This document shows, one piece after another, positions 1 to 64,000 of a DNA stretch of 64,000 nucleotides. The DNA comes from Squalus acanthias. Lineage: Eukaryota. Numbering within the stretch: position 1 is the first letter of the stretch; each line of letters opens with the position of its first letter. The stretch spans positions 42,284,001 through 42,348,000 of the forward strand of contig CM059446.1 of NCBI GenBank assembly GCA_030390025.1. The letters are read 5' to 3'. Made by a program: the position numbers and the translations under genes. The notes beneath the pieces were generated by a model. The model searched no databases and was not told the origin of the DNA. It saw nothing but the letters and a program-made list of their open reading frames with translations.

Positions 1-1061
1 ACACATATGTATAAATACCCCTCCCTCAATAGGGAGGTGTGGGGCTATTTAAATATTGGGCAGAGGGCTGGGACAATGTCTCCCTTTGGTGCATATAAAG
101 CCTTTCACCCTTGGAAAAAAAACATGCTAAAGTTCGCTTGTACTAGCAGAAAGTAACTGGCTATTAAATGTTACATGTTTCGATTTATAATGGAAAAAAT
201 CAATAGCACTGGTTGACCGCGCCAATGTCAAAATTAGGCTCCATATGTTTAGTAAACTTGCTCATTGATTCATGCAATTCTTGTAATATTTTAAGAGGCA
301 CTATTATTTACACATTTAAAAAAAGTATATGATTTTAGAAGACTATTCAATTTATAAAGTGTGAATGAAATGGCTTTAAAGTACCTTCTATGCAATATGT
401 ATATTGCATTTAAGTTTAAAAACAAATTAATTGCAGTGAAATTTTGTATTTAAAAATTAAACATCAGCAAACATTCCGATCCGACTTTGTGGAAACACTC
501 AAATTTGATTTCTCAGCTGAACAGTTTCAATTTCTCAACAGCCTTCACAACCCTTTCATGTGAGAAGTTGAAGCATCTTTTCAAAGCTATGCACCTTTGA
601 CTTAGTTACACCCTAAAGGACCTCACACATCTGAGGGATTCTCATTCTTCTGAGAATAATCAATGAAGAGACACATCTTGCCTTACAATTTGATTAAATG
701 AAGAGAAATTAGTCAGCTCAAGCTTCGCATTTAGATGACCTCTTGTTTTGTGTAATGCTCGAAAACAAATCATTTGATTTTAAAAGTTGCTCACAATCCC
801 TTTAAAACAGTTCTACGCAATCTTTTTGTAACACTAATAAAGTTACTAACTTGAGAAATTCTACACTAGGTAGCCTTCCACTTCGAAATGTAGAAAACCA
901 ACAGATTCCCGATAAGGATAGACAAACATTCTGAATGTCTAATAAAACAAAAGATGTCCAAAGTAGAAATCCTTTGTTCTTGCAACGTTTTGTTTACATA
1001 AAGCAGCGCAAGAGCAGAATCAGGGCAGTTGGGTCCTTAAGACGGGAGTCTTCATTACAGG

Positions 1062-1296
1062 AATAAAAACAGAAAATGCTGGAAATACTCAGCAGGTCAG
1101 GCAGCATCTGTGGAGAGAGAAACAGAGTTAACGTTTCAGGTCGATGACCCTTCGTCAGAACTGGGTTCTGACGAAGGGTCATCGACCTGAAACATTAACT
1201 TTGTTTCTCGCTCCACAGATGCTGCCTGACCTGCTGAGTATTTCCAGCATTTTCTGTTTTTATTTCAGATTTCCAGCATCCGCAGTATTTTGCTTT
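1062..1296. mobile_element. Palindromic hammerhead-bearing mini-element, family A (Penelope-like pLTR remnant)
   Basis: 100-bp inverted arms (1062-1161 / 1165-1264, 3 mismatches) plus a 32-bp unpaired tail. Flanked by a 15-bp direct repeat agtcttcattac(a/g)gg at 1047-1061 and 1297-1311. Confidence 0.85.
1126..1162 (-). ncRNA. Minimal type I hammerhead ribozyme motif (family A, intact)
   Basis: Minus strand reads AGTT-CTGACGA-AG-GGTC atc GACC-T-GAAACGTT-AACT. Stem I AGTT/AACT, conserved core, stem II, palindromic AACGTT stem III, predicted GUU cleavage triplet. Confidence 0.75.
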
Positions 1297-2117
1297 AGTC
1301 TTCATTACGGGTACTTACTTCACAGTCTTGGCAGAAAATATGCTATTCTTCCGATTATCTAGCATGGATATGGTATAAACAGTGCTCAACCAGAATCAGA
1401 AAGGGATTTGCACGGATGTGCTTTATTGCTGATAAAGAGGATTGGTTCCCTATCCAGAAGTACTGCTGCAGTTTCCCGGGTATGTCCACATCTAGTCACT
1501 GTATAGATTTTCATTAATACAGTAACATGTAAAATGAATTCAGCAGCAGGCCATTACTAACGGTTTAACGATAGCCAGAGCACTTACTGATGGGCATTAC
1601 CATACATTAGCCAACCAGCATTTAGGTCACTCCAAAGAAAAGTGTATTACATTAATGATTTACAAAAGGTAAATATGGCAAGCTATTAACTGTGTTTACA
1701 AGTCATTCTAATATTTACTTATATCATTACTTGCTCATCCACCGGTCTTATCTTTCGTTTACTCAAACAGAATCTTACAGTCTTGCTGATAATTAATCAG
1801 ATAAAATTAGGCCTTTTTTTTTGATCTCACTGCACGGTGATAAAGCCTAATGCCATAAATTAAGTGCAATATTTTGAAGATGTCCCTTCATCAACTAATA
1901 GTGACCGACCTTTGGATTTCTAACAAACACATGGCCTCATTTCTGAAGCAAGGAACAGCAGATGCTTTGATGCTGCACTTATTTTCTGCTACAAAGAACC
2001 CTACAGTCTACAATCATACCAGATCTTGCAAAACCTGTATGGAGATTTGCTACAGCTTGGCCACATTTTCTCTTGGAAGAGCTACTACAGTTTGGACACA
2101 CAGCTACTCTTTTAGGT

Positions 2118-11980: not shown

Positions 11981-12169
11981 CTAGTCCACTGATGGTATAA
12001 TGGGAATCTTGCATGCCGAGTCCAATTGGCCCAGTTTCCTGCTGACTTTCTTCCCTATAGAAGAGTCGATATCCCTGGATGTGCACACTGTTTTCCTCCG
12101 CTTGCTTCCACCTTACTGTAATGGTTGTGCAGTTCAATGGCTCTAAACGCAGCTCTGGGGCCAAGGGGA
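11981..12169 (-). CDS. PRTG: Protogenin exon (approx. exon 11), FN3-3 N-terminal part
   Basis: [66 protein letters not shown] acceptor, GTATGT donor, 189 bp. Confidence 0.96.
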
Positions 12170-15100
12170 CTATGGAAATAGGAAATGGAAAACGTTATTC
12201 AAGACCTTTCAAATGTTCCTATTAGAATACAAGTATTCTTGAGTTGCATAAGGAGGTTAAAACATGATTCTTTACTTGCTTTCACACATACTCGGTTATC
12301 TCTGGTACTGCTGGAATAAGACAGCAGCCTACACTCAACATCAACTTTCTTTGTAAAAAAAATACCTGATTAATCTCATCCTCAAAATGTGTCATAGCAT
12401 TTACATTTGTTCTCAGAATGTTGCATGTAGATCTAAAAGTCACTGACAATACCTTATTTTGTCAATATAGAAAGCCTTACTCCCAGACATGAAAATAAGT
12501 TTATCTAAGGGCAATGTGCACATTTCACAGGGATTTACAAAACTAAAGGGAAGCCCAAAAACAAATTGATGTCAAATTCAGGAATTGCTTCCATAGCCTC
12601 TGGAAAATTAAAGTTCAGTTGCGACTGAAATTGGGCCTTGAAATCTCAGTTAATAAAGCTACTTCTGCAAAGAAGTCACGTGGCACCATTTTGCTTCTCG
12701 CTGAGGATTCCCAAGAGCTAAGCTTGGCCCCTTCCACAGACATTTTAAATCGGCAACCTAACACTCAGGGTGTTTTTATACATGCATGTATCTTTGGGGG
12801 TTTTTAATTTTTTTTTTAAAAAGAACACTGGTTTAGGTCTTAGTTTCTGAACAGGTCATGATTTGTGCTGAGAAAATCTCAAAAAAAAACACAGGAGTTT
12901 TGGAAACGGTGCTGCAGAAAAAGAAATCTAGGGATGACAGACAGGAGGCTGCACGAAGGGAAGACACAAAAACACAAGTGTAAGCAGAACTCGGGATGAG
13001 CTTTTTCAAGTCTTGCTTTTCTTCTTTTAAGGGAAGGAATGCTGCCCACCCTGCTGCTTACTCCCCTAATCTGATGAAAACAACAGGCCTGGAGCCCCAC
13101 AGGGATGTGTCCTGCTCCAAGCCTGACAGCTCCAAGATTGATGGTTTAAGATAGCAGGCACCAGAATGAAATACTGGTGCTTTGACTGTTTATTTGGATG
13201 CATCAGCAAACATAAACACACCATCTCTTTGTTTGTGCCCAAACTGAATTATTCTTGGATGGATACCATTTACTAAAATCAAAGGTAAACAAGATATTCC
13301 TCCTCCCTCCCCCCCCCCCCCCCGCCACCCCCACCAACAGTTGGAGAATCAGTTCCTACTAAGCACAGGCTCATCTTTACTATTGGGGCTTGCAGACCAT
13401 TGCAAGCCTTCATGATCCATTGATTTGGGGCCCATCCTGATGTTACTGGCACAAGGGCAAAGGTCACAAGGGTAACAGCAACAACATCTTAACAAGATTA
13501 TTGCAACAATCTCTTATGAACAACAGGCAGATCACCATATGCTCTGCCTCAGGATGGAGGTTTGCATTTTCCTCCTCGAAATCAGAACGCAGCATCATTT
13601 TGCATCTCGCTTATAAAAATGCACTGCACTAAACTAAAATTAACAACCTCAAATACTTGCTATTGTAGCGATTTACTTCCAACCTCACGCATTTTCACAA
13701 TCACGTGGGAAAAGTACACTGCAGACCTAGCCTTTGCTGAAATCCGGAATCCACAGTTGCACCATGTGTGTCATTTTTAAATGAAAAACTGTACTAGTGG
13801 GTCCATTAGCTGTATTGCTCTCATAGCATTGCCTTTAGGAGACATGGTTCAGTCATCAATGAACATCACATGACTCATCTTTTAAATCTACAATATTTTT
13901 ATGCAGCACCCTGTGCACATTGCCATGAGAAATAATACACAATCTATTGTATATTAAAAATGTTCAGTGGGTCACAACATTCCATTTAAAAATGCATCGG
14001 TAATTCCTACGCCAACTCAGTCTACGGAAAAAACGATTATAAAAAGTATGTTAACATGCATCTGCAGTGCCAGTTATGTCTGTAAGATTGTGTTGTGAAC
14101 AGCCAATTTCAATTTTAATGCTCCGATTTTAACTCGGGCCACGTAGGGGCGGGAAGCCCATGATGCTGCTGGTGCGAGCCTCGGGCCGTTTTAACTCCCA
14201 GGGCCTCATTACCGTGTAGGAGGTAGCATTCCTGCCCGAACCTGGAGGGAATGACGAGGTGGCCGGCAGACTTCGCTGGGTAGGAGGCCACCATCAGGGA
14301 CCCGAGGGAACGCTCCCCAGCAACACTAAGTGGTGAGAGAAGGTCGGTGGAGGGGAAGGGAAGCCACAATAACAAATGTAACTTTACAATTACATATGGA
14401 GCTTTATTTTACCTACAAGTACATGAGGATAAGGCCTTTTATTGCCTGATTCTCCTTTACTCTATTGTATCAGACAGGGGTATATTTGGATGCATATGCT
14501 AATAATTATATATTTTACATACAGCCCAGCAAATTAAGTTAATAGTCATAGAAAAATGAAATTGAGGCCTCCCACAGCTGAAATTGTTAAGCATCTAACT
14601 CCTAACCCTAGTTTGAAGGACCTAGTACAAGTCACAGGTCACTCTGCCATTTGAACTTGCTTCATCCAGTTGAAAGTGCCCTTAGTCCTCAGAACGGCCA
14701 TTCGGTATTGCACAGCACTCATTTGCATAAAGGTATGGTAAGTCAACAGAACTGAAGTTGCTTTTGTCCAATGACCACATAATGGCACTGATGGATTGTG
14801 GAGGAAAGTATGGTCCTACCAGCCACCTCCTCGCTGATACAAGCTGGATGCAATGAGCTGTTCCCAGGAAAGTGGGGAATGGGCGAGTTAGAATGCAAAA
14901 AACTTAGTTTCACATACACACACATATAAGGAGTAATTATGAACATTTTATTCTAATTTGGAATTGGGAGTTTACCTAAAGACAAATGCCATCTAATGTT
15001 TCTCTATGAAGAGTGAAAAAAACTGGACTGATACCCAACAGCTTGCCACAGGGTATTTGTAAAGCCATGTGTCCGGGTCTCCAGCTTGATCATTGTCTTA

Positions 15101-26120: not shown

Positions 26121-26437
26121 AGAGATGAAATCAGCACCATCTTAATCACAAAATTCAGTCAATTTCTTCAAAGGCATAATTTGTCTCAATATTTTGAAAA
26201 TATGACTGAACAGCAATAACATACCTGCATGTTTATTACAACAGGGAGTTGAGGATGGACTGATCAGCTCAACCACCCTGCACTTTTAGCATTTCCATGA
26301 CAAAACACAACTTGCATTCTCATCCGTTAAGTCATTTCCCTTGCACAGAATGCACGTGCACACAGCTTTTAGATTAGATGTAGTGACCGTGTGTTGAATG
26401 GGCAGCCTAACTGAACCAATTACTGGACATTGTCAGT

Positions 26438-26901
26438 GTCAGCCGTGGCTCAGTTGGTAGCACACTCGCCTCTGAGTCAGCAGGTTGTGGGTTCAAGTCC
26501 CACTTCAGGGACTTGAGCACAAAAATCTAGGCTGACACTCCAGTGCCGTGCTGAGGGAGTGCTGTACTGTCGGAGGTGCCGTTTTTCAGATGAGATTTCA
26601 CGCTAAACCGAGGCCCTGTCTGCTCTCTCAGGTGGACGTAAAAGATTCCATGGCACTATTTCGAAGCAGGGGAGTTATCCCCGGTGTCCTGGCCAATATT
26701 TCTCCCTCAATCAACATAACAAAAACAGATTATCTGGTCATTATCACATTGCCTGTTTGTGGGAGCTTGCTGTGCGCAAATTGGCTGCCGCGTTTCCCAC
26801 ATTACAACAGTGACTTCACTCAAAAAAGTACTTCATTGGCTGTAAAGCGCTTTGAGACGTCTGGTGGTCGTGAAAGGCGCTATATAAAGTCTATTTTTCT
26901 T
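26438..26901 (+). mobile_element. Full-length tRNA-derived DeuSINE (SacSINE1-like)
   Basis: A-box gtggctcagttggtag and B-box ggttcaagtcc. Core ctgtcggaggtgccgt...aaaccgaggccc resembles the recalled Deu domain. Tail gtgaaaggcgctatataaa. Confidence 0.85.
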
Positions 26902-26933
26902 TGTTCAGGAAGAAAGACATCTCAACTGTGTAC

Positions 26934-32687: not shown

Positions 32688-33475
32688 GGGCTGGAATTTC
32701 ATTGACCCGTGGAGGTGGGTTTGGAGGAGTGTGGGGGGTTAAAGTTGCAGATTCGGGGGTCCCGACCCCATGCCAGTTTCGCTGGAGGCGGGTACCCGAC
32801 CTGTGCTGGGATCGCCTCCCCGAAGTGGGAAGGGGATTAGTGACAATAAACTGCCTGTTTTTGCCTAATCCTATTTTAATGGCTGAAATGTGGGCTTCCC
32901 GACAGGTCCCAACCACGCCAAGTTAGCGAGGCGGACCGTGGGTCTGCAGGGGTTGGAGGGGTCGATATGTCCGGTGGGCAGGTGAGTGATGGGTGCATGT
33001 GTGCAAAGGTAAGTGTGTAAGGTAAGTATAAAAAGTGTGGGAAAAAGTTTTACTTACCTTAACTTCCTCCTGCAGGTGTCAGCCCTTCAGGTCTCGAGAG
33101 TCAGAAATCTCACCAGCACAGAAAACAGAATGGCCCTTGACCTGTCAAAAGTTGCAGCCTCTGTTTTCTGTGCTGGATTGATTTCTGACTCAGCCTGAGA
33201 GGAAGGACTCAAGTTAGATGACAGATTGTCAGTGTTTGACAGCTTCACAGAGCTGTCAAACGCTGATATTTCATCTGTCAAAAGCTCTCGACAGATGAAA
33301 TGTCAATCTGTGACGTCACCTGTTGCCGGTGGTCCTTAATTGGCCTGCTGAGCTCGCTGGGCGGGCTCAACAAGGGAAAATACAGTGGGTTGGCCACAAG
33401 TCGATGGAGGCGGGACTACAACCCAAAAAGTGGGAGTCCCGCCACCATCACATCCCCAGTATCAAAATCCAGCCC
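32688..33475. mobile_element. PIF/Harbinger-type MITE
   Basis: TIRs gggctggaattt / aaaatccagccc (11/12), 3-bp TSD aac, no coding capacity. Confidence 0.75.
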
Positions 33476-33482
33476 AACATCT

Positions 33483-33760
33483 TTCATGGAATGATAGAGT
33501 ACAGAAGGAGGTTATTTGGCCCATTGTGCCTGTGCCGGCTCTTTGAAAGAGCTCTCCAATTAGTCCCACTACCCCACTCTTTCCCCAAGCCCTGCAAATT
33601 ATACCCCAAGTATTTATCCAATTCCTTTTGAAAGTTATTATTGAATCTGCTTCCTCTACCCACTCAGGCAGTGCATTCCAGATCATAACTCACAGCATAA
33701 ATGTATTTTCCTCATGTCGCCTCTGGTTATTTTTCCAATTACCTTAAATTTGTGTCCTCT
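33483..33760 (-). mobile_element. CR1 LINE 3' fragment
   Basis: ORF 33462..33686 IWNALPEWVEEADSIITFKR is the CR1 ORF2 C-terminal motif WN.LP..VV.A.S...FK. Confidence 0.8.
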
Positions 33761-34030: not shown

Positions 34031-34852
34031 GGGGGCGATTTTGCCAGCCCTGGGGAAGCGGGACTGCCGGGAAAATGGCAGAATTTGGGGGTGGGTGCCC
34101 AACCCACCCCCAACCCGACTCCATGCCATCTTCCCAGGAGGCGGGTAGCCGTCCCGCACCGGGTCCCGTCTCCTTGGAGGTGGGAAGGGATCAAAGCCTA
34201 TTAACTGCCTGTTAACAGGTAGTTAACAGTCAGAAAATAGGATCATCCCCTTTTTGTCCTCAAGTGCGGGCTTCCCAAAGGCTCCAAAACCCGCCAGGTC
34301 AGCGAGGCGAGTACTGGGTCTGCGGGGTGCAAAAGTGTGGTGTGAAGGTAAGTGATGGGTACAAGAGTGTAGAGGTGAGTATCTGAGGTAAGTGCAAAGT
34401 GTTAGTAAAAGTGTACTTACCTTTGTTTCTTCCTGCAGGCTTCAGTCGGTGTGTATGCGGAGAGTCTCGGACCTCCGTGTTGGAGATGACAGATGGCCAT
34501 TGCATTCTCAGATGCAACAACCATCTCATTTCTGTAAAAGAAGGAAGTTTGATGAGGTCTTGAATTCAAGACCTCATCAAACTACAGAGAATGTCACTGT
34601 TTGACAGCTTCACAGAGCTGTCAAACGATAACAATTCATCTGTCAAAAAATTGTGACAGATGAAACGTCATACGTTGACGTTCTCTACAACCGGCTTTCC
34701 CTTAATTGGCCTGCTAAGCCCGCTGGGCAGGCTTAACAAGGTCAATCAAGGGAAAATAGCGTGGGTTGGCCACAAATTGATGGAGGTGGGACATCGACCC
34801 ACCAAAGCAGCAGTCCCGCCTCCAACGCACCCCCATTGACAAAATCGCCCCC
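34031..34852. mobile_element. PIF/Harbinger-type MITE related to 32688-33475
   Basis: Perfect 13-bp TIRs gggggcgattttg / caaaatcgccccc and a TAA target duplication (34028-30 / 34853-55). The interior is homologous to the neighbouring element. Confidence 0.85.
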
Positions 34853-38192: not shown

Positions 38193-38300
38193 ATTCCATA
38201 TTGCAACAGTGACTACACTCAAAGTGCTTCATTGGCTGTAAAGTACTTTGAGACGTCCAGTGGTCGTGAAAGGTGCTGTATAATTGCAAGTCTTTCTTTC
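38193..38300 (+). mobile_element. DeuSINE 3' tail fragment
   Basis: caacagtgactacactcaaagtgcttcattggctgtaaag...gtgaaaggtgctgtataattgcaagtctttctttc. Confidence 0.7.
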
Positions 38301-40811
38301 ATTGCCATAAGTGTCCTGCACCACAAAGAGTGTTAAACTGTGAAAATGAGTGTGATCTATTACACAAATGCTGTTTATTAACAGTGCTGACTTCCACTCC
38401 TCTGCCTTTAGTTCCTGGCTCTACAATTGGCAAAAAGCAGAGATCAGTAAAAATGAGCAGCAAAATTGTAGAGTCCAGTCTCCATTACAAAAGTGAAGGC
38501 ATCTCTGAAACCCAATGGATTTGAAGCACAACGTGTAAAATGCCACCTTTCAAATTTTAAAATGCCCATATTGTGCAGCACTGTGGCTGAGTTATCAACC
38601 TACCATCAGGACAGTTTTATTGCACACTGTATGATGGATGCTACCCATAGTTAAATGTTTAGAGAACTAAGTAGCTCTAAGCAGGACGTCGATAAGAATA
38701 TAATAAGTGTCTCCAAAGCTATCCAAGCAAGACAAACACCACAGCCAAACTCAAATGTAGGTCACATGACATGCAGAGCACTTTAATTCCTGATGAAAGT
38801 TGCTATTTATGAAAGCACTTCCCAGTTGGCCTGCATACGCTGAACTTTAAAACCATCAATAAGGAAGGTCACACAACATTACCTCGTTCATTACTGACAA
38901 GACAAATAAGAATCATCCAGGACGAGAGGGAGACTGGAAGGGGTGTTAAAGGAATGGTTTATAAGCATGTCAACTAAACTTACACAGTAAGTGATGAAAG
39001 CTAGTAAGATTTTATAAATAACTCATGAGGTAGTACGAGTACAAATCATTTCAATTTCCATTCATTTCGCTTTTCTCACTTTAGGGCACTCCCCTCCACA
39101 CAGACACACTTTGCCCTAACAAGAACCTTTCTGCAGATTGATAATGTCCAGTATTTATTTCCACATCAAGAGGCAATTCTTTTCTTGGAATGCTGCATGT
39201 AACAGGCTCGCTGAGCATTCTAAGGTCAGGCAGAGGTGGAAGCAACTATAGCTGCTGCGCCTCTCTCTCTTTCTCTCACCCACTGAAAACCTTCTGCGAT
39301 CCAGCAGGCAGCAAATTCAAAGTATTTACTACAGCAGAAATGTTTCATCTCTGCATCGTAGAAAGGTGAACCTCTCATTAGCTGAACCACTGGATTGGAG
39401 AGAAAAATAAAGCGCACATACTTCCCCCCCTCCCCACCACAATTCTTTTCGGCATGGATTATGGCTCCTCTTCAAATCTTGGGATAGTGCCCCAATGTTT
39501 CCGGAACACTGTATACAGGTTAGCACCTCTGGATCCACTCCTTCCTCCTCAAAAATAACATCAATTTCAGGTATTACTACAACTTATTTTTGTGGCAGTA
39601 TAACTCAGGAACATCAAGTAAAAGTACTTATTTTTTTACTTTCCAATTTTTAAACTTGGTTTCAAAATAAATGAGTATTCTTAAACCCCTCTCCCAACCA
39701 CATCAAAATAGAAAATACTTGAAGAAAACTTCTAATAAAAGACAATGAAAAAACATGCATGTCAGAGCTCCGAAGGCTGATTTTATCTGATAGAATATGG
39801 GTAATGTACGGACTCTGCCTGGAGCCCTCCCTTTAAACCTATTCTATCCAACCATTCCTCACTCATAAACCCAGACTACCCTACAGCAAGGTAAGAATGG
39901 GTCACCTTGAAATGTGGTCAGAAGCTGTCAAGGATTCTTTTCCATCTGACTTGGCTGCAAAAGCCCCACATAGGGAAAACCAGCCTCCCTCTGCAGACAG
40001 GACCCCCCGAAATCTCCCCGACTCTGCTGAACCCAGTGGGCTTCACCAAATTACCCCATCCACAACCCCACCCCGACCCCGTGTAGTTCCCAGAGTGCAC
40101 TTAACTTTAACTATACAGTAACCTCAAAAGAATCAATGTAATCTCCTCCAAGTACCATGTAACAAACTATATAGCAACTTCACAAAATGCAAGCATTATT
40201 CCCCCACCCGCTCCTCAAAAACACATTTGTAGCCCAGTTACCAGTTATAAGGCTATCTTCAGGGCCATCTGTCTGTCTTTCCAGTCAGTCTCAAGAGGCA
40301 AGTCAAAAATTGATCAGGTGGGGAAGACAATTGACTGATTCTGCCTGTTGAGAGTAGAGAGTTGAACTTCTGCACCATAACTTGGACGGAAGATCCACAG
40401 AAGCCCTGGAGAACAGGCGTAAAGCTGGAGTTATAGCAGATAATCAGGAGAACCCCAAGAAAATTTAACCCGTCGCTGTCCATTGTCACATTAACGATAT
40501 GTATTACTGTGACTGGGGAGCTTCTGTCGCTGAACACTTTCTCATTCCACTCTTACAATGATTATTCTCCTTTGTAGGTAGCAGCTTTTTTCAATTAATT
40601 TAATTAGCGACATGGACAAGTATTCCTAACAGGTCAAAGGCATGTTTTCCAGATCAGTCACAAATTCTAGGATGGCTTTTCATTCAGATACAATTGAGCC
40701 AAGCAGGTGGCAATTTTTTTCAAAATTAGGGTGGAAATGAAACTGTAGAATTTTCACATACCTTCCCCCGTGGGAAAATATTTTGCTGAGGAATCCAACA
40801 AATGAGTTAAA

Positions 40812-42857: not shown

Positions 42858-43075
42858 AAAGCAAAATACTGCGGATGCTAGAAATCCGAAATAAAAACAG
42901 AAAATGCTGGAAATACTCAGCAGGTCGGGCAGCATCTGTGGAGAGAGAAACAGAGTTAACGTTTCAGGTTGATGTTCTGACGAAAGGTGATCGACCTGAA
43001 ACGTTAACTCTGTTTCTCTCTCCACAGATGCTGCCCGACCTGCTGAGTATTTCCAGCATTTTCTGTGTTTATTTA
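42858..43075. mobile_element. Palindromic hammerhead-bearing mini-element, family A, opposite orientation
   Basis: 85-bp inverted arms (42889-42973 / 42990-43074) with the tail on the left. Candidate TSD ttggaaca at 42850-57 and 43077-84. Plus-strand motif GTT-CTGACGA...GAAACGTT-AAC at 42974-43008. Confidence 0.82.
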
Positions 43076-45896: not shown

Positions 45897-46032
45897 CAGT
45901 AACTCTACCTGAGGAAGGGGCGACAGCTCCGAAAGCTTGTAATTTTAAATAAATCTGTTGGACTATAACCTGGTGTTGTGCGACTTCTCATTTTTGTCCA
46001 CCCCAGTCCAACACTGGCATCTCCGCATCATG
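45897..46032 (+). mobile_element. Single-arm family B hammerhead mini-element with tail
   Basis: TAC-CTGAGGA-A-GGGGC gaca GCTCC-GAAAGCTT-GTA followed by the same body and tail as 62281-62410. Perfect 12-bp TSD acattaaaccca at 45885-96 and 46033-44. Confidence 0.85.
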
Positions 46033-46512: not shown

Positions 46513-46597
46513 CTCCTGTCAAAGTGCACATTCTTTGCAGCAACACTGCAATCTCCCAGAAAATTCATATACCATCAAGTTCAAACTATCTCTTCAT

Positions 46598-47014
46598 AGA
46601 AAGAAAGACGTGCATTTATATAGCGCCTTTCACGACCACCGGGCATCCCAAAGTGCTTTACAGCCAACTTTTGAAGTGGAGTCACTGTTGTAATGTAGGA
46701 AACGCGGCAGCCAATTTGCACACAGCAAGCTCCCACAAACAGCAATGTGATAATGACCAGATGATCTGTTTTTAGTTATGTTGATTGAGGGATAAATATT
46801 GACCAGGACACCAGAGATAACTCCCCTGCTCCTCTTCAAAATAGTGCCACGGGACCTTTTACGCCCACCCGAGGGGGCAGACGGGGCCTCGGTTTAACAC
46901 CTCATCCGAAAAACAGCATCTCCGACAGTGCAGCGCTCCCTCAGCACTGCACTGGAGTGTCAGCCTAGATTTTTGTTCTCAAACCTCTGGAGTGGGACTT
47001 GAACCCACAACCTT
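46598..47014 (-). mobile_element. DeuSINE (SacSINE1-like), 5' end slightly truncated
   Basis: Reverse complement of the same family. Confidence 0.85.
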
Positions 47015-48809
47015 GTGGTTAATTCTTGGTCTCACTGGAGCCTAAATGCAATGAAGGTTTTTTCAATCACTGTAATGAAGAAAATTTACTGAAGCCATAC
47101 ATCATATGACAGACATGATGTAAAGTAAAATTACACATCTTACAAATATTTAAAGGTAGCTCACCTCAGATATAATATTTGCACGGTTTAAGGGAAAAGT
47201 GGATAGAATCACAGAATTTGATCTCAAAAAACACCAGTTAAAATTAGAAATTGATTTTTTTTTTTTTTTAAACAGATTTTATAATGTTTCTCAAATACTA
47301 AGACCCTAATCGTAAACAGATGTAACTGTGGAATGCAATGCCTAAAACACTGATAAAAGTCTCAGAATCACAATACAATTTTAATTGAATTATTAAAATT
47401 ACCATAAATCAGTGGCCCATAATATTTGCAATACCACTTATTTACCACTTTAAAAAAAAACTTAAGTTGCAAGTAATTTTGTCCTTCCTTTCCGAAACCT
47501 CCATGTTCTCAGTTATTTACATTAATAATTTTGTCCGTGTTTCCCATAATGGATTTGCAGTATTTGTTTATTCATGTACTCTTCCCGTCTCACTTTCCAA
47601 AACTGACCTTCCTTTTTCTCAGTTAGTTAAATTATATTTTAAAAAATTCGTCCACCTTGCTTCCCCAGATGGATTTGCAGTGTTGCTGCTGCCCTTGGTG
47701 TCGTGATCTATGCTGTTTTTTCTGCACCTTCGAGTCTCCCAACGACCATCTTGAGCAGCGTCTTGTTCTGGGATTGACAAACTGACTGACTCCAGTGTCC
47801 GAGCAACTCAAACCTCCCCAGTACAAGTATCAGTACCCAACGACACAAAATAACATTATTCCAAACAATCCCCTTAGCTCAGAATATTTATTTAATAGCT
47901 TAAACTGCATAAATGCTGGGAGGAAATTGGTTATATGTTGTTGTAGTGCAGTCTGGGTATTGTAGTTCCATCACAGCAGGGCAACAACCACAACTGCCCT
48001 GATACACGACACACATGCACTCGCACATATACACAATTATGACCAGAAGTCGGACTTCACCGCTATCCCAAGGCCCACAAGAAATTTCTAATCTCTGGGA
48101 CTGAAGTAAAACTCAAGTGTCAGGCTCCTGAGGAAGGGGAGGCCTGCACAGGGGAAATGCCTTGCAAGTATCTCCAATATTAACTAACTGATTTTGTGGG
48201 AAGATTTAATGATTTCACCCCCCCCCCCCCCCCCCAACCTCCCCCAAAAATGTAATATTTTTTGAGGGCTAGTTTAGGTCGTAAAGGTTATTTTTAGCTG
48301 CATATACTGACCCAAGTGTAGCAGTTGGAAACAGCTTGAAAAAAACTGCATGAGCAATTTGATTGGTTTTGTTTTGTAATAGTTGTTGGTTCCAGATTAT
48401 TGAATTTGGAAAAAAAAGAGCAATTTGTTGGATTGTTTCCACCTGTCTAGTGAACGCTATGGTTTTTGATTGCTTCACGTTTAGTCAATGGCATATTTCA
48501 GCCAATCAGTATTAACTTAACATTTAATTCAACTAATCACTATTTTTTGCCCTACATACACTGCGAGGTCTGGTGCCTGACATTGTATTATATCGATAGC
48601 CAGTAAACATAGAACAGTCCTGCTGATATGTTTACTATGGAACTATGTAACATTTGTGTGCCTCTACTTAGTGATTATACTGAGATGCGATTAATATACA
48701 GAAATATATAAATGAAATGAGAGTTGCAACTAATGCTCGCTTAAAAAGCATGGCGATCGTTTCTATCAGATATAAACGGTCTTACCCACTGCTCCCCAAT
48801 AGCTCTGCA

Positions 48810-52100: not shown

Positions 52101-53193
52101 GGTTCTTGCTTCAGCAGCTCTCAAAGGAATAGCCTGAAGAAAAATACTGTCTCCTCAACCCAAAAAAAAAAGCCAACTAACTACACCCACAAGAAACACT
52201 TCTCATCTCTTCTGATAACAAATTAGAAAAAAAATAAAATTTTTATGCAAGAGAAATGGGTGATATAATTTAGGAACGACCACTGCAACTAGATAAACTC
52301 TATTAAGTCAACTAGAGTTGTAGTTGGATAAGGAAGATAGATCTCCCATCACCCCTGCCACATAAAGACAGTTTTGCATGCAAATTAACATTCTTCACAC
52401 ATCAATTCATGAGAGACGAGTGTTTCTACAGTTTGACACACAAATTCCTACAATGAAGGTTTAGACTCGTGCTCCAGTTTGTTTCCTTCTTCGCCCCATC
52501 TATCAAATAAGCATTAATATCTTGCCACAGAAGAGGGCAATAAAACTAATGCACTAATCAAGAATTCCCTTGGCTCTTTCCTAGGCTGTGAAAAGCAGGA
52601 AATGGCCGGGGTGACACCCAATAAGCCACATTAGGTTGCATCAAAGCAGTTCTACTTGTGTGGCTGCTGTTCATTCATTCAAGAAAATGCACATGCTTTT
52701 ACTGTGCCTGGTCTGTTTAACGGGGCCTGTAAGTGATTGTTGGAACAGTTCATACAGTACATGAGCACTGCCTATGATTTACAAGTGTTTATATCTATAA
52801 TTCAAAATCAATAAGGCATTCACAAGAATCTCCACCAAACCACTAAGAAACCAAACGCATTTTGAAATTTATTTTCCAGTTTTAACAATGTTTCTTTTAA
52901 CTGGCTTAACCATTTGATGACCAAAATGTTGTTTGTTTTTTTTATAAACTGGCTAGTTAGATTTTAAGATGCATTTACAAATCAAGAAACGTTCTTCACA
53001 TTCTACACATTTCTTGAATTCTACTACCCAAGAATAACCTCACCATGCTGATATTACAATTGGTGAAATTCTTTGTTTGGATGTTGGAGGTTTTGAGTAC
53101 ATGGAAGGATCTCTCATACCAAACGATAACATGTTAAAAGCTTAGAACAACTTGTATTTATATAGCACATTTATTGTAGTAAACCATCCCAGT

Positions 53194-53665
53194 GTCAGCT
53201 GTGGCTCAGTGGGTAGCACACACACCTCTCAGTCAGAAGGTTGTGGGTTCGAGTCCCACTCCAGGGACTTGCGCACATAAAGCTAGGCTGACACTCCAGT
53301 GCAGTGCTGAGGGAGGGCAGCACTGTCGGAGGTGCTGTCTTTCGGATGAGACGTTAAACCGAGGCCCCGTCTGCTCTCTCAGGTGGATGTAAAAAATCCC
53401 ATGGTACTATTTTGAAGAAGAGCAGGTGAGTTATCCCCAGTGTCCTGGCCAATATTTATCCCTCAGCCAATATAACAAAAACAGATTATCTGGTCATTAT
53501 CATATTGCTGTTTGTGGGAGCTTGCTGTGCGCAAATTGGCTGCCGCGTTTCCCACATTACAACAGTGACTCCACTTCAAATAGTACTTCATTGACTGTAA
53601 AGCGCTTTGAGACGTCCGGCGGTCGTGAAAGGCGCTATAGAAATGCAAGTCTATTTTTTTCTTTT
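53194..53665 (+). mobile_element. Full-length tRNA-derived DeuSINE (SacSINE1-like)
   Basis: Highly similar to 26438-26901 along its length. Confidence 0.85.
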
Positions 53666-54817
53666 AAGGCACTTATTTAAAATTAAGAGAACAATATGGA
53701 AAATTCTGAAGAGGGTAAATGATCTAATCTTCATGAATGACTTTTACGTGAAGTTTAGAGTAGGCTATACTGTCCATGATAATATAGTGTCCCTTCTGCA
53801 TCTACAGAATATAAATTATGACTCCATAGCTGAAAATGTAAAATAAAAGGAAAAACGTGCGATTCACTGACCATCTCACTGGTGAACAGTGGTGGAATAC
53901 AGTGCCATTCAGATCAGGAAGATCCCAGGTCTTCACGGAGTGAACTGATCTCAGGCAAATTAGCAGGAGGGGCTCTACAACTAACCTGTGTCCCTCAGCT
54001 TTGGGAAGGGGGCAAAAGTGGTAAATCAGCAGATGCCCTGCTCCTGGTCACAACCCAGTGACCTCTGCTGGACAGCAAATGTGTGTGTGGATGTTGGGCG
54101 AGACTCCGCTGTGATGGCTCCATGGTTGAGACAATTTGCTGCCATTGTCTCAGCTCACTAATCGTGGCCACCTGGGTAAGGTACTGGAGGGCTACAATAC
54201 TTGTGCAATCACACTTGAGCACAAGTCACTTGTTAAAAAGGGGGGGGGGGGGGGGGGAGGAAAACTTAGGGGGCAACTTTTTTTATTAATAAAATTTCAG
54301 CTGCTCAAAAAAAAGTCCCGTCACCACGTCCACCATTCCACTTTCTATTACAGTACCAATTTATCTCATCTCCAGTACAATCTCAACTGGAGCAGAAATA
54401 GGGCACTACAATTGTTTTCAGTGCCTCGGAGTTGGGTGGGAAATTTCAACCAGGCCTCCAACTTCTAACTGCTGTCCAGCAACCCATGCTAGAAGTGCAT
54501 GTTTGGACATTGAGTGAGGTGAACATCTGCCTTAGTCATCATGCCGTCTGGATTCAAATAGTCTGTTGACACTGGGCAGAACGGAGAGGGTACTTGGCAC
54601 CCATGAAATTGCACACCAGCATGGAGCTGGTGCCTTTAGAAGCAGAGGAGGGAGGAAAGAGGAAAGGAAAAGTGCCATTTTATTTGCAATTAATGTTTTT
54701 ATACTGCATTTTTTTTTTGAAGAGGAACTAAAATTAGGTAGTTTACAAATTAACACTACATAGAACGGGAGCTCATTAAATTTTGAACTTCAACTTTCAT
54801 TGAATCATAGGACTGTA

Positions 54818-59763: not shown

Positions 59764-59858
59764 CTGACGAAAGGTCATCGACCTGAAACGTTAACTCTGT
59801 TTCTCTCTTCACAGATGCTGCCTGACCTGCTGAGTGTCTCCAGCATTTTCTGTTTTTA
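59764..59858 (+). mobile_element. Single-arm family A hammerhead mini-element
   Basis: Begins exactly at CTGACGAAAGGTCATCGACCTGAAACGTTAAC. 9-bp direct repeat tattaaata at 59755-63 and 59859-67. Confidence 0.8.
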
Positions 59859-62110: not shown

Positions 62111-62240
62111 ACAGGCTGGATTCCAAAATAAAGCCAACCCACTCCTCAAATGAGATTTCAATCTTCCCGTCTCCTGTTTTTTTTTTAAGAAGTGAGAAGT
62201 TGCACAACACCAGGTTATAGTCCAACAGTTTTATTTGAAA

Positions 62241-62278
62241 TCACAAGCTTTCAGAGCGGCTGCTCCTTCATCAGGTGA
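62241..62278 (-). ncRNA. Minimal type I hammerhead ribozyme motif (family B, opposite strand)
   Basis: Minus strand reads TCAC-CTGATGA-A-GGAGC agcc GCTCT-GAAAGCTT-GTGA, with one G-U wobble in stem II. Confidence 0.75.
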
Positions 62279-62280
62279 CT

Positions 62281-62318
62281 TCACCTGACGAAGGAGCAGC
62301 CGCTCCGAAAGCTTGTGA
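62281..62318 (+). ncRNA. Minimal type I hammerhead ribozyme motif (family B)
   Basis: TCAC-CTGACGA-A-GGAGC agcc GCTCC-GAAAGCTT-GTGA. Stem I TCAC/GTGA, 5-bp stem II, palindromic AAGCTT stem III. Confidence 0.8.
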
Positions 62319-63865
62319 TTTCAAATAAAACTGTTGGACTATAACCTGGTGTTGTGCGACTTCTCACTTTTGTCCACCCCTGTCCAACACCGGCATCTCC
62401 GCATCATGGCTGGTTTTTTTTGAAAGCACTGAATTGTGCTCTGGTACATTTGTACAGGTACCATCAGCCCTCTGGTACCTTGCCCAAATTGCCATCCTTG
62501 ATGTAAAAGCCTATACAGCAAGTGTATTTGCCAGGAGGCTTTTAGAGCCACACCGATCCACTCTGGGGGGCGGCAGAGGGACAATATCTAACGCCCCTCC
62601 CTCGTCCAAGGCATTGAGTGCAACTGCAGTCCCATAACTGTTAGCGGAGCAGTGAGCAGCTAATGCAATACAACTATGGACTAAACCAGTGATCAGGCAC
62701 AGCATTCACCCACTCTTGTAGGTTTGCTACATGCGTTATTCACACTGAATACAACTTTTTGGGCTGAACGAATACCAGCTGGTGATAGCACAGCTTCAGC
62801 GATACATGAGTCCCTGTTCATTTAATTGATTTAGCATTATTCCATTATATATAAAACCCAATTAAGCCAGAATAATGCACCGTTCTAACCACATTACACA
62901 CATCACACACAAAGTAGTTCTATAAACAGTCCTTCTCCCATAAAGCTTAAAACTATCCATAGCTAAAACTACCTTCGAAAACTGGATACTTCAGCCTCTC
63001 CAGAGTTCATTTTCTTTCTGGATATATTGTGCAAGACTTGCTTTTTATTTTGCATTTCTTAAAAACTTGTGAAAAACCATTTGTAAATGACACTGCTTTG
63101 AATAGTCAACATTAATCTCCCTTCAGGCACAGTGTTTTGTTAAGTTCTCAATGGCAAAGTGAAGACTTTTCTGGAGGGTACCAAAATATTCAGAGCCAGA
63201 ACCACTGTGAGAAATGGTCATAAAAGGTTTTGTTATTATCCCAAACAAATCCGGGTTAAAAATGGATAATCTTAATGTTTCCACATGAAGCACTGCAAGC
63301 GATTATAAAGAATGCAACTCTTTAAAAAAAACTGAAAACATTACTGGGGCGGATATCTTTAATATAAAGGGTTATCCCTTCCTCAAGGTTAGGTTGAAAA
63401 AAAGGTCAACTTCTGCACTTCCTCACTCCAGCTGAACCTCTCCTCCCCCCTTTTAACAAGATGGTGCACCTACAGGACTCGTCACTGAACAGCTCTGCAG
63501 AAATAACACCAAGCAGCATCTTTTCTGGGTCTCAATGCTAAAACAGAGGTGGGTAAGCCAAGAAACTTCAGTACCATATACTGAGGATCCATAGCAGATG
63601 TTAGCTGAACCACTCATTTATCTACATGGGAAGGGGGGCAGAGGTAGGACTGCACTGTAGGTATTTCCCCCTACTTCTGTGACTTAGAGTTCAAATTCAA
63701 TACAATGAAGGTCTCCTCTGTCTGGTGGCTATGAGGTCTAATATGAAATGATTGAGCAATTTCAATCCAGTTTCTATTGGCATGGAAAAATGTAACACTG
63801 GTGAAGTAAAGTTATGCTGATAGAGTTAGATGAGGAAGGATGGGAGGAAGTTCAAGTGGAGTACA

Positions 63866-63941: not shown

Positions 63942-64000
63942 AAAATTGAGAAGTCGCACAACACCAGGTTATAGTCCAACAGCTTTATTTGAAATCACAA
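63942..64000 (-). mobile_element. Family B mini-element arm cut off by the window end
   Basis: tgagaagtcgcacaacaccaggttatagtccaacagctttatttgaaatcacaa matches the left arm at 62193-62246. Confidence 0.8.

Follow-up and report, generated by a model that had tools for sequence, protein, structure and literature searches.

A palindrome with hammerhead motifs at the PRTG locus of Squalus acanthias as a probable remnant of a Penelope-like retrotransposon end

A stretch of 64,000 nucleotides from the shark Squalus acanthias (contig CM059446.1, here called the window) contains close to its start a long palindrome with a hammerhead-like motif in each arm and a direct repeat on both flanks. This raises the question which kind of element left such a structure behind, how its two arms came to be joined and whether it does anything for the gene at this locus. 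In all probability the palindrome is the leftover of the end of a Penelope-like retrotransposon (PLE), small and ordinary, a membership that we infer since no RT/GIY-YIG partner was found.

The palindrome and its relatives in the window

A first, sequence-only reading of this DNA had described two inverted 100-bp arms followed by a 32-bp tail on one side, and this arm + arm + tail layout is indeed present. The arms (1062-1161 and 1165-1264) are complementary at 97 of 100 positions, with TGG in between. The features of this locus, called A1, are the following:

1047..1061, plus strand: left copy of the target-site duplication (TSD), 15 bp, matching the right copy at 14/15 positions
1062..1164, minus strand: tailless arm, a putative pseudo-LTR (pLTR) fragment read on the minus strand, which is the PRTG-sense strand; it includes the 'spacer' (1162-1164) as probable extra 5' sequence
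1165..1264, plus strand: tail-bearing arm, with all three differences between the arms (1194, 1201 and 1210)
1265..1296, plus strand: 32-bp PLE-type tail, with a 3' end identical in copy A2; it starts with acceptor-like site 2
1297..1311, plus strand: right copy of the TSD, pairing with 1047-1061

The flanking repeat of 15 bp is thus present as claimed but is not perfect; it scores 13, and a score above 9 was reached by 0 of 300 random position pairs. The spacer of three nucleotides was likewise found, but it is most likely part of the left, tailless arm. For the spacer count, 22 rows from 20 proteins related to the open frame of the arm were anchored, with P0123 left out, and the 16 with a homologous upstream part were kept; of the six rows left out, one starts too late, three have an unrelated upstream part and two score weakly. 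At the spacer codon, P (the left-arm reading, in the context CSFP) is found in 3/16 of these related sequences and W (the right-arm reading) in 0/16, and the other 13 share nothing there. Thus, the spacer is most likely a part of the tailless arm, and the element extends further upstream. Placing the spacer by stem I pairing was also tried and was ambiguous, with four pairs for the left arm and five, including a wobble, for the right arm.

BLAST identified two further loci of this family, family A, in the window:

42858..43074, no single strand: copy A2, an inverted pair in which the minus-strand arm bears the tail and is without the 5' half of the ribozyme; flanking repeat of 8-10 bp
59764..59858, plus strand: copy A3, a solo arm without tail that starts at the first core base; flanking repeat of 9 bp

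The A2 repeat is weak when taken alone (9/300 random position pairs score equally). The four family A arms that span the ribozyme core are identical at 88-92 of 95 positions. The starts of all five arms precede the cut site and fall into a stretch of about 19 nt around the core; the three tailless arms all end 95-98 nt from C3, and both tails (A1 and A2) have the same last base. Each of the two palindromes carries one variant that is common to its two arms and absent at the other loci (2/2); such private variants point to a single insertion event, but gene conversion could also produce them. Searching the literature by title and start of the abstract retrieved no paper on shark family A, which may nevertheless have a Repbase or Dfam entry; a 21-nt stretch of the arm had no match in the papers searched.

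A second family, B, is also represented:

62190..62409: copy B1, an inverted pair with tail
45897..46032: copy B2, a solo arm with tail, flanked by a perfect 12-bp repeat
63942..64000: a copy cut by the window end

That the bodies of A and B are unrelated, as had been stated, is borne out by shuffling: their similarity outside the ribozyme is not significant, with 4667/5000 shuffles scoring as well. A short likeness between the tails of A and B did not reach significance either (568/5000 and 1104/5000 shuffles were as good). The distance from the core to the end of the tail is 129 nt in A and 124-125 nt in B. At the B1 junction (62274-62285) there is a short internal palindrome of the sort known from inverted junctions of PLEs.

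The translation of an exon in the window has chondrichthyan protogenin (PRTG) as best match, with 95-99% identity. According to tblastn the PRTG exons occupy the minus strand between 27491 and 11982 and reach aa 672 of 1208; Pfam matches among the window ORFs were restricted to Ig and fn3 domains, at the PRTG exons. The exon nearest to A1 is:

11982..12194, minus strand: PRTG exon encoding aa 601-672 of 1208

Since PRTG exons past aa 672 were not found in the window, A1 is most likely located in the next PRTG intron, with its left arm in PRTG-sense orientation. No exon for aa 1-122 was found above 27491 (to 64000), so A2, A3 and the B copies are probably located in one long early PRTG intron. 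The window contains other repeats as well. A dispersed repeat, which reaches about 480 bp and probably represents a SINE or LINE end, is present in both orientations with copies 81-96% alike (2125-2586, 26434-26909, 38194-38304, 46592-47017 and 53184-53669), and self-BLAST revealed a duplicated or repeated local block (32761-33639 and 34114-34846).

The hammerhead motifs

Both arms of A1 carry CTGACGAA, stem II and GAAA, followed by ACGT(T) in the minus-strand arm and ACAT(T) in the plus-strand arm. Read outward from the centre, each arm passes from stem I and CUGACGAA through a stem II of 5 bp, GAAA and a palindrome of two bases to UU and stem I. The two motifs are:

1126..1162, minus strand: minimal type I hammerhead motif, intact according to the published minimal-hammerhead consensus (PMC4209133 Fig. 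S3); stem I 1162-1159 / 1129-1126, core from 1158, 5-bp stem II 1150-1138, GAAA 1137-1134, palindromic CG 1133-1132, predicted cut 3' of 1130
1164..1200, plus strand: second hammerhead motif, in which a G-to-A change at 1194 (CG to CA) breaks stem III

Core and stem II are therefore there as first described, except that stem II has 5 bp (GGGUC/GACCU) and not 4. The pair at its base is G-U in A1 and A-U in the other copies, and both alternatives also occur at 10.1-11.1 in the alignment of PMC4209133. The cut site predicted earlier, after GUU, fits the minimal hammerhead motif.

A minimal-hammerhead descriptor detected seven motifs in the 64-kb window, every one of them in a family A or B copy, against a background of 0.03 motifs per window in 100 Markov simulations. 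Stem pairs were counted by position over the seven motifs, the MAFFT alignment being out of register across families; 71 of the 77 pair cells are paired, with A and B using different pairs, and stem III is broken in one motif of the seven. Pair changes are found mostly between the families; in B2, a double change in stem I from C-G to U-A keeps the pairing. This layout agrees with the minimal-hammerhead consensus of PLEs, in which the additional base after A9 and the 15.2-16.2 palindrome are also found. Shared with the minimal type I hammerheads defined in PMC4209133 are CUGANGAH, the 5-bp stem II, GAAA, the two-base palindrome, UH and a short stem I; the species in Fig. S3 of that paper include no shark. 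Rfam returned no hammerhead match, neither for the window at the gathering score nor over 900-1450 at E<=10, and for that reason the ribozyme call rests on the published consensus. Sub-threshold Rfam miRNA matches reflect only the long hairpin. None of the 13 variable columns (C3 onward) falls on one of the 12 core positions, which with five arms has a chance of about 0.3, calculated by hand; moreover, the motif scan itself required the core.

In computed folds AACGUU self-pairs (-3.5 kcal/mol) and AACAUU does not. For the isolated arm, an alternative fold is favoured over the hammerhead by 4-5 kcal/mol (z = -0.74), and no hammerhead dimer formed when two ribozyme copies were cofolded freely. 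The two motifs of A1 are located on opposite strands, and therefore a tandem dimer in cis is impossible. PMC4209133 describes minimal PLE ribozymes as nearly inactive alone, with low activity even as dimers.

Origin and mode of insertion

We consider A1 very probably to be a severely 5'-truncated head-to-head insertion of a shark PLE pseudo-LTR, made in trans by a PLE RT/GIY-YIG enzyme. The earlier proposal of a retroelement insertion with target-site duplication agrees with the flanking repeats at A1, A2, A3 and B2, solo arms having their own. An inverted, 5'-truncated head-to-head terminal copy is present in A1, A2 and B1 (orientation taken from the ribozyme strand); the 32-bp tail with its common end is optional, being present in A1 and A2 and missing in A3; and the flanking repeats vary in length, with 15 (14/15), 8-10 and 9 bp in family A and 12 bp in B2. 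Inverted pLTRs, an optional 31-bp tail, TSDs of 8-10 bp, solo pLTRs and mostly head-to-head junctions are described in PMC3846280. An inverted copy and a tail of 30-40 bp at one end are general PLE features according to PMC8557442, where the features that make the tandem and inverted structures of PLEs are called 'still undefined'. PMC2377424 reports a 34-37-bp repeat and an intron in the Drosophila pLTR, and in PMC4209133 most hammerhead copies are single motifs of truncated PLEs, with opposite-strand pairs 100-700 bp apart. Thus, the layout of A1 is not new, since inverted pLTR, tail, TSD and a hammerhead with palindromic stem III have all been published for PLEs.

The EN+ PLE Pen2a_Av of Adineta vaga (PMC3846280) shares with A1 the head-to-head inverted terminal copy and the 31-32-bp tail on one arm; variable TSDs and solo terminal repeats are also shared with such elements. 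In contrast to the EN+ PLEs (Penelope/Poseidon, Neptune), A1 has no ORF between the repeats and the whole insert comprises only 235 bp. None of the 270 stop-to-stop ORFs of at least 60 aa in the window matched RT or GIY-YIG families, and neither was found among the 21 + 1 protein matches to the open frame of the arm; the missing coding part is expected because the copies are truncated. The ATG of the arm was considered as start of a PLE ORF, which is unsupported: no polyprotein was found and the length of the 43-aa open frame is not rare.

The Poseidon element of Anolis carolinensis (PAc) nicks and extends both strands in vitro, its RT initiates at two internal positions that delimit the tail, 111-118 nt beyond stem II, and its template is mainly uncut RNA (PMC11167929). 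The distances from the core to the end of the tail in A (129 nt) and B (124-125 nt) are close to these positions. Common to PAc and family A are two 3' ends one tail apart, a hammerhead about 120-130 nt before the end of the tail and, as far as it can be deduced for family A, an uncut template. However, PAc is an autonomous element tested in vitro; differing from PAc, the ATT/AAT triplet is here present in only 3/4 TSDs examined, and 3/4 sites have an AT content of 59-64%, near the window background.

The insertion could have taken place as follows. An endonuclease, presumably that of a PLE, would nick both target strands about 15 bp apart, yielding the TSD that is observed. The RT would then start at either of two fixed sites 32 nt apart, generating ends with or without the tail; the two ends themselves are found here, and fixed start sites are proposed as their cause because of the Anolis Poseidon experiments (PMC11167929). 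Each nicked strand may prime one cDNA, one per site, a step to which we give about an even chance within this model. Both cDNAs would terminate at the hammerhead's 5' edge before being joined head to head. The template would not have been cut at this ribozyme: since 5/5 arms retain bases that precede the GUU cut site, it was probably uncut, or a re-ligated circle. The copy would have decayed neutrally ever since, and computed folding places ribozyme and acceptor in a 100-bp hairpin in the PRTG pre-mRNA.

The central question in this model is whether two cDNAs were made or one. In A1 and A2 the extra 5' sequence is located on the tailless arm and the tail on the other; this asymmetry is stronger in A2, whose tailed arm is without about 15 nt that its partner has. 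Each arm thus holds sequence that the other lacks, and therefore twin priming is favoured over snap-back copying. These two loci are what favours twin priming; unlike them, B1 has a centre that leans to the tailed arm, its central bases matching B2 by eye at 7/11 positions when read with the tailed arm and at 4/9 when read with the other. Gene conversion, or a later deletion in the middle of the palindrome, could produce the appearance of both signals. It might also be possible, though we think it rather unlikely, that in an insertion of the same PLE origin a single cDNA snapped back and copied itself. Self-priming from junction palindromes has been proposed for PLEs (PMC3846280), and a snap-back would fit the private variants common to both arms as well as the palindromic junction of B1 with its centre. 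A snap-back from a tail-primed cDNA would, however, leave the unpaired centre on the tailed arm, whereas in A1 and A2 the tailless arm has it, and the shortened tailed arm of A2 argues against it, too.

Another origin, which we regard as improbable, would be a short non-autonomous element in its own right, similar to a retrozyme or SINE, whose RNA of about 135 nt might be circular and which a PLE would mobilise. The clustered starts of 5/5 family A arms within about 19 nt around the core would agree with this, as would the lack of an attached coding part and the fact that 13/16 relatives share nothing upstream of the core. Retrozymes are proposed to be PLE derivatives and are present in a chondrichthyan (bioRxiv 10.64898/2026.07.22.740005). 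The non-LTR retrozymes described there and in PMC7229834 are short and non-coding, with a type I hammerhead and a probable dependence on PLEs, like family A, but family A is not tandem, its ribozyme is of the minimal PLE type and not the canonical retrozyme type (PMC7229834), and its layout is inverted with a tail. Neither tandem arrays of A or B nor a tRNA gene was found in the window. Moreover, further upstream sequence is common to 3/16 relatives, and the copies end at the edge of the ribozyme rather than at the cut site, both of which speak against such an element.

The sequence-only reading had concluded that two independent lineages generate the same product. A and B are separate sequence families, but the shared product is expected from common PLE machinery and does not call for independent invention. 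That both reached an identical layout through unrelated machinery is very improbable: the lack of sequence similarity outside the core would allow it, yet short non-coding ends diverge until no likeness is left, a genome as a rule harbours several divergent ribozyme families (PMC4209133), and this layout is found again and again in PLEs, from rotifers and flies to fish and lizards. The common layout of A and B is most simply explained by PLE machinery used in both.

Splice-acceptor-like sites, shark gene models and PRTG

Two sites in A1 resemble splice acceptors:

1108..1130, minus strand: acceptor-like site 1, with branch-like TTAAC, 15/17 pyrimidines and CAG ending at 1108, then ATG; PRTG-sense and inside the hairpin
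1267-1268, plus strand: AG of acceptor-like site 2, at the start of the tail

Among the 4057 YAG sites of the window, 36 have a pyrimidine content as high as that of site 1. Site 1 is found 22 nt past the predicted cut site on the ribozyme strand. The cut is predicted to fall inside the branch-like TTAAC of site 1, and the boundary between arm and tail (1264-1268) is at most 4 nt from site 2. The tail of A2 (42858-42889, minus strand) runs in the PRTG-sense direction and has GG in place of the acceptor-like AG; this single case could be due to chance or to selection against a cryptic acceptor.

With the 43-aa open frame of the arm, phmmer gave 21 matches including one bacterial false match (P0123); the others read like translated repeat copies, and the two that bear a name come from Scyliorhinus torazame and Heterodontus francisci. 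A profile search added RNF14 isoforms of Heterodontus. Family A is thus spread across sharks, being present in gene models of Scyliorhinus and Heterodontus. Three of the six named shark rows (P0129 of Scyliorhinus and, twice, P0135, PIKfyve-like, of Heterodontus) switch from unrelated sequence to the element at the ATG after site 1, one (P0149, Heterodontus RNF14 isoform X3) enters it exactly at site 2, and the remaining two (P0146 and P0147, Heterodontus RNF14 with a common N-terminus) read through site 1. The junctions at both sites are deduced from these protein gene models. The family A segments in annotated shark isoforms (RNF14, PIKfyve-like, Scyliorhinus) may represent real exonization or annotation leakage.

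For PRTG itself, A1 probably does nothing. The 265-nt A1 insert, flanking repeats included, folds as a single hairpin with -188 kcal/mol. When stems I and II are imposed and the core is kept open, the fold loses 56.4 kcal/mol on the PRTG strand and 53.7 kcal/mol on the opposite one. It is correct, as first noted, that the motif is intact in the minus arm, read on the PRTG strand, and broken in the plus arm, but this is no pointer to function: the break is one CG-to-CA change, and the hairpin wins by ~56 kcal/mol. A change from CG to CA is the usual decay of methyl-CpG. In a head-to-head pair the antisense arm would be transcribed first and would capture the ribozyme as it emerges. With the ribozyme fold outcompeted by the hairpin and the antisense arm made first, cleavage by the intact PRTG-strand motif is unlikely.

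A domesticated intronic ribozyme or hairpin that regulates PRTG is accordingly a reading to which we give hardly any credence. The intact PRTG-sense motif, the location of 3/3 arm differences on the other arm and an acceptor-like site in PRTG-sense direction could be taken as signs of it; however, three of three differences on one arm have a chance of 0.25 (calculated by hand), the ribozyme fold is costly inside the hairpin, minimal PLE ribozymes are nearly inactive alone, and with 88-92 of 95 positions identical to its sibling copies A1 is an ordinary young copy. Least probable of all is a MITE, a small DNA transposon with terminal inverted repeats, which would likewise be short, non-coding and palindromic with a TSD but would explain neither the one-sided tail, the TSDs of 8-15 bp instead of a fixed length and the solo arms with their own TSD, nor the paired ribozyme motif. 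For annotators this likeness matters, as such copies resemble MITEs or miRNA hairpins and leak into shark gene models.

A wider interpretation, which we put forward tentatively and hold to be doubtful as a whole, is that the palindromes are fossils of PLE integration intermediates, with both strands priming, two RNAs possibly held together by stem III and the uncut hammerhead acting as pairing or stop signal, and that family A is a shark-wide donor of two exonized 3' splice sites. If this is true, the shark copies would allow the origin of PLE inverted repeats to be tested by counting which arm bears the centre. Palindromes without an ORF, whose 3' ends are fixed at two points and whose 5' ends cluster, would be suited for this, and a genome-wide count could separate twin priming from snap-back.
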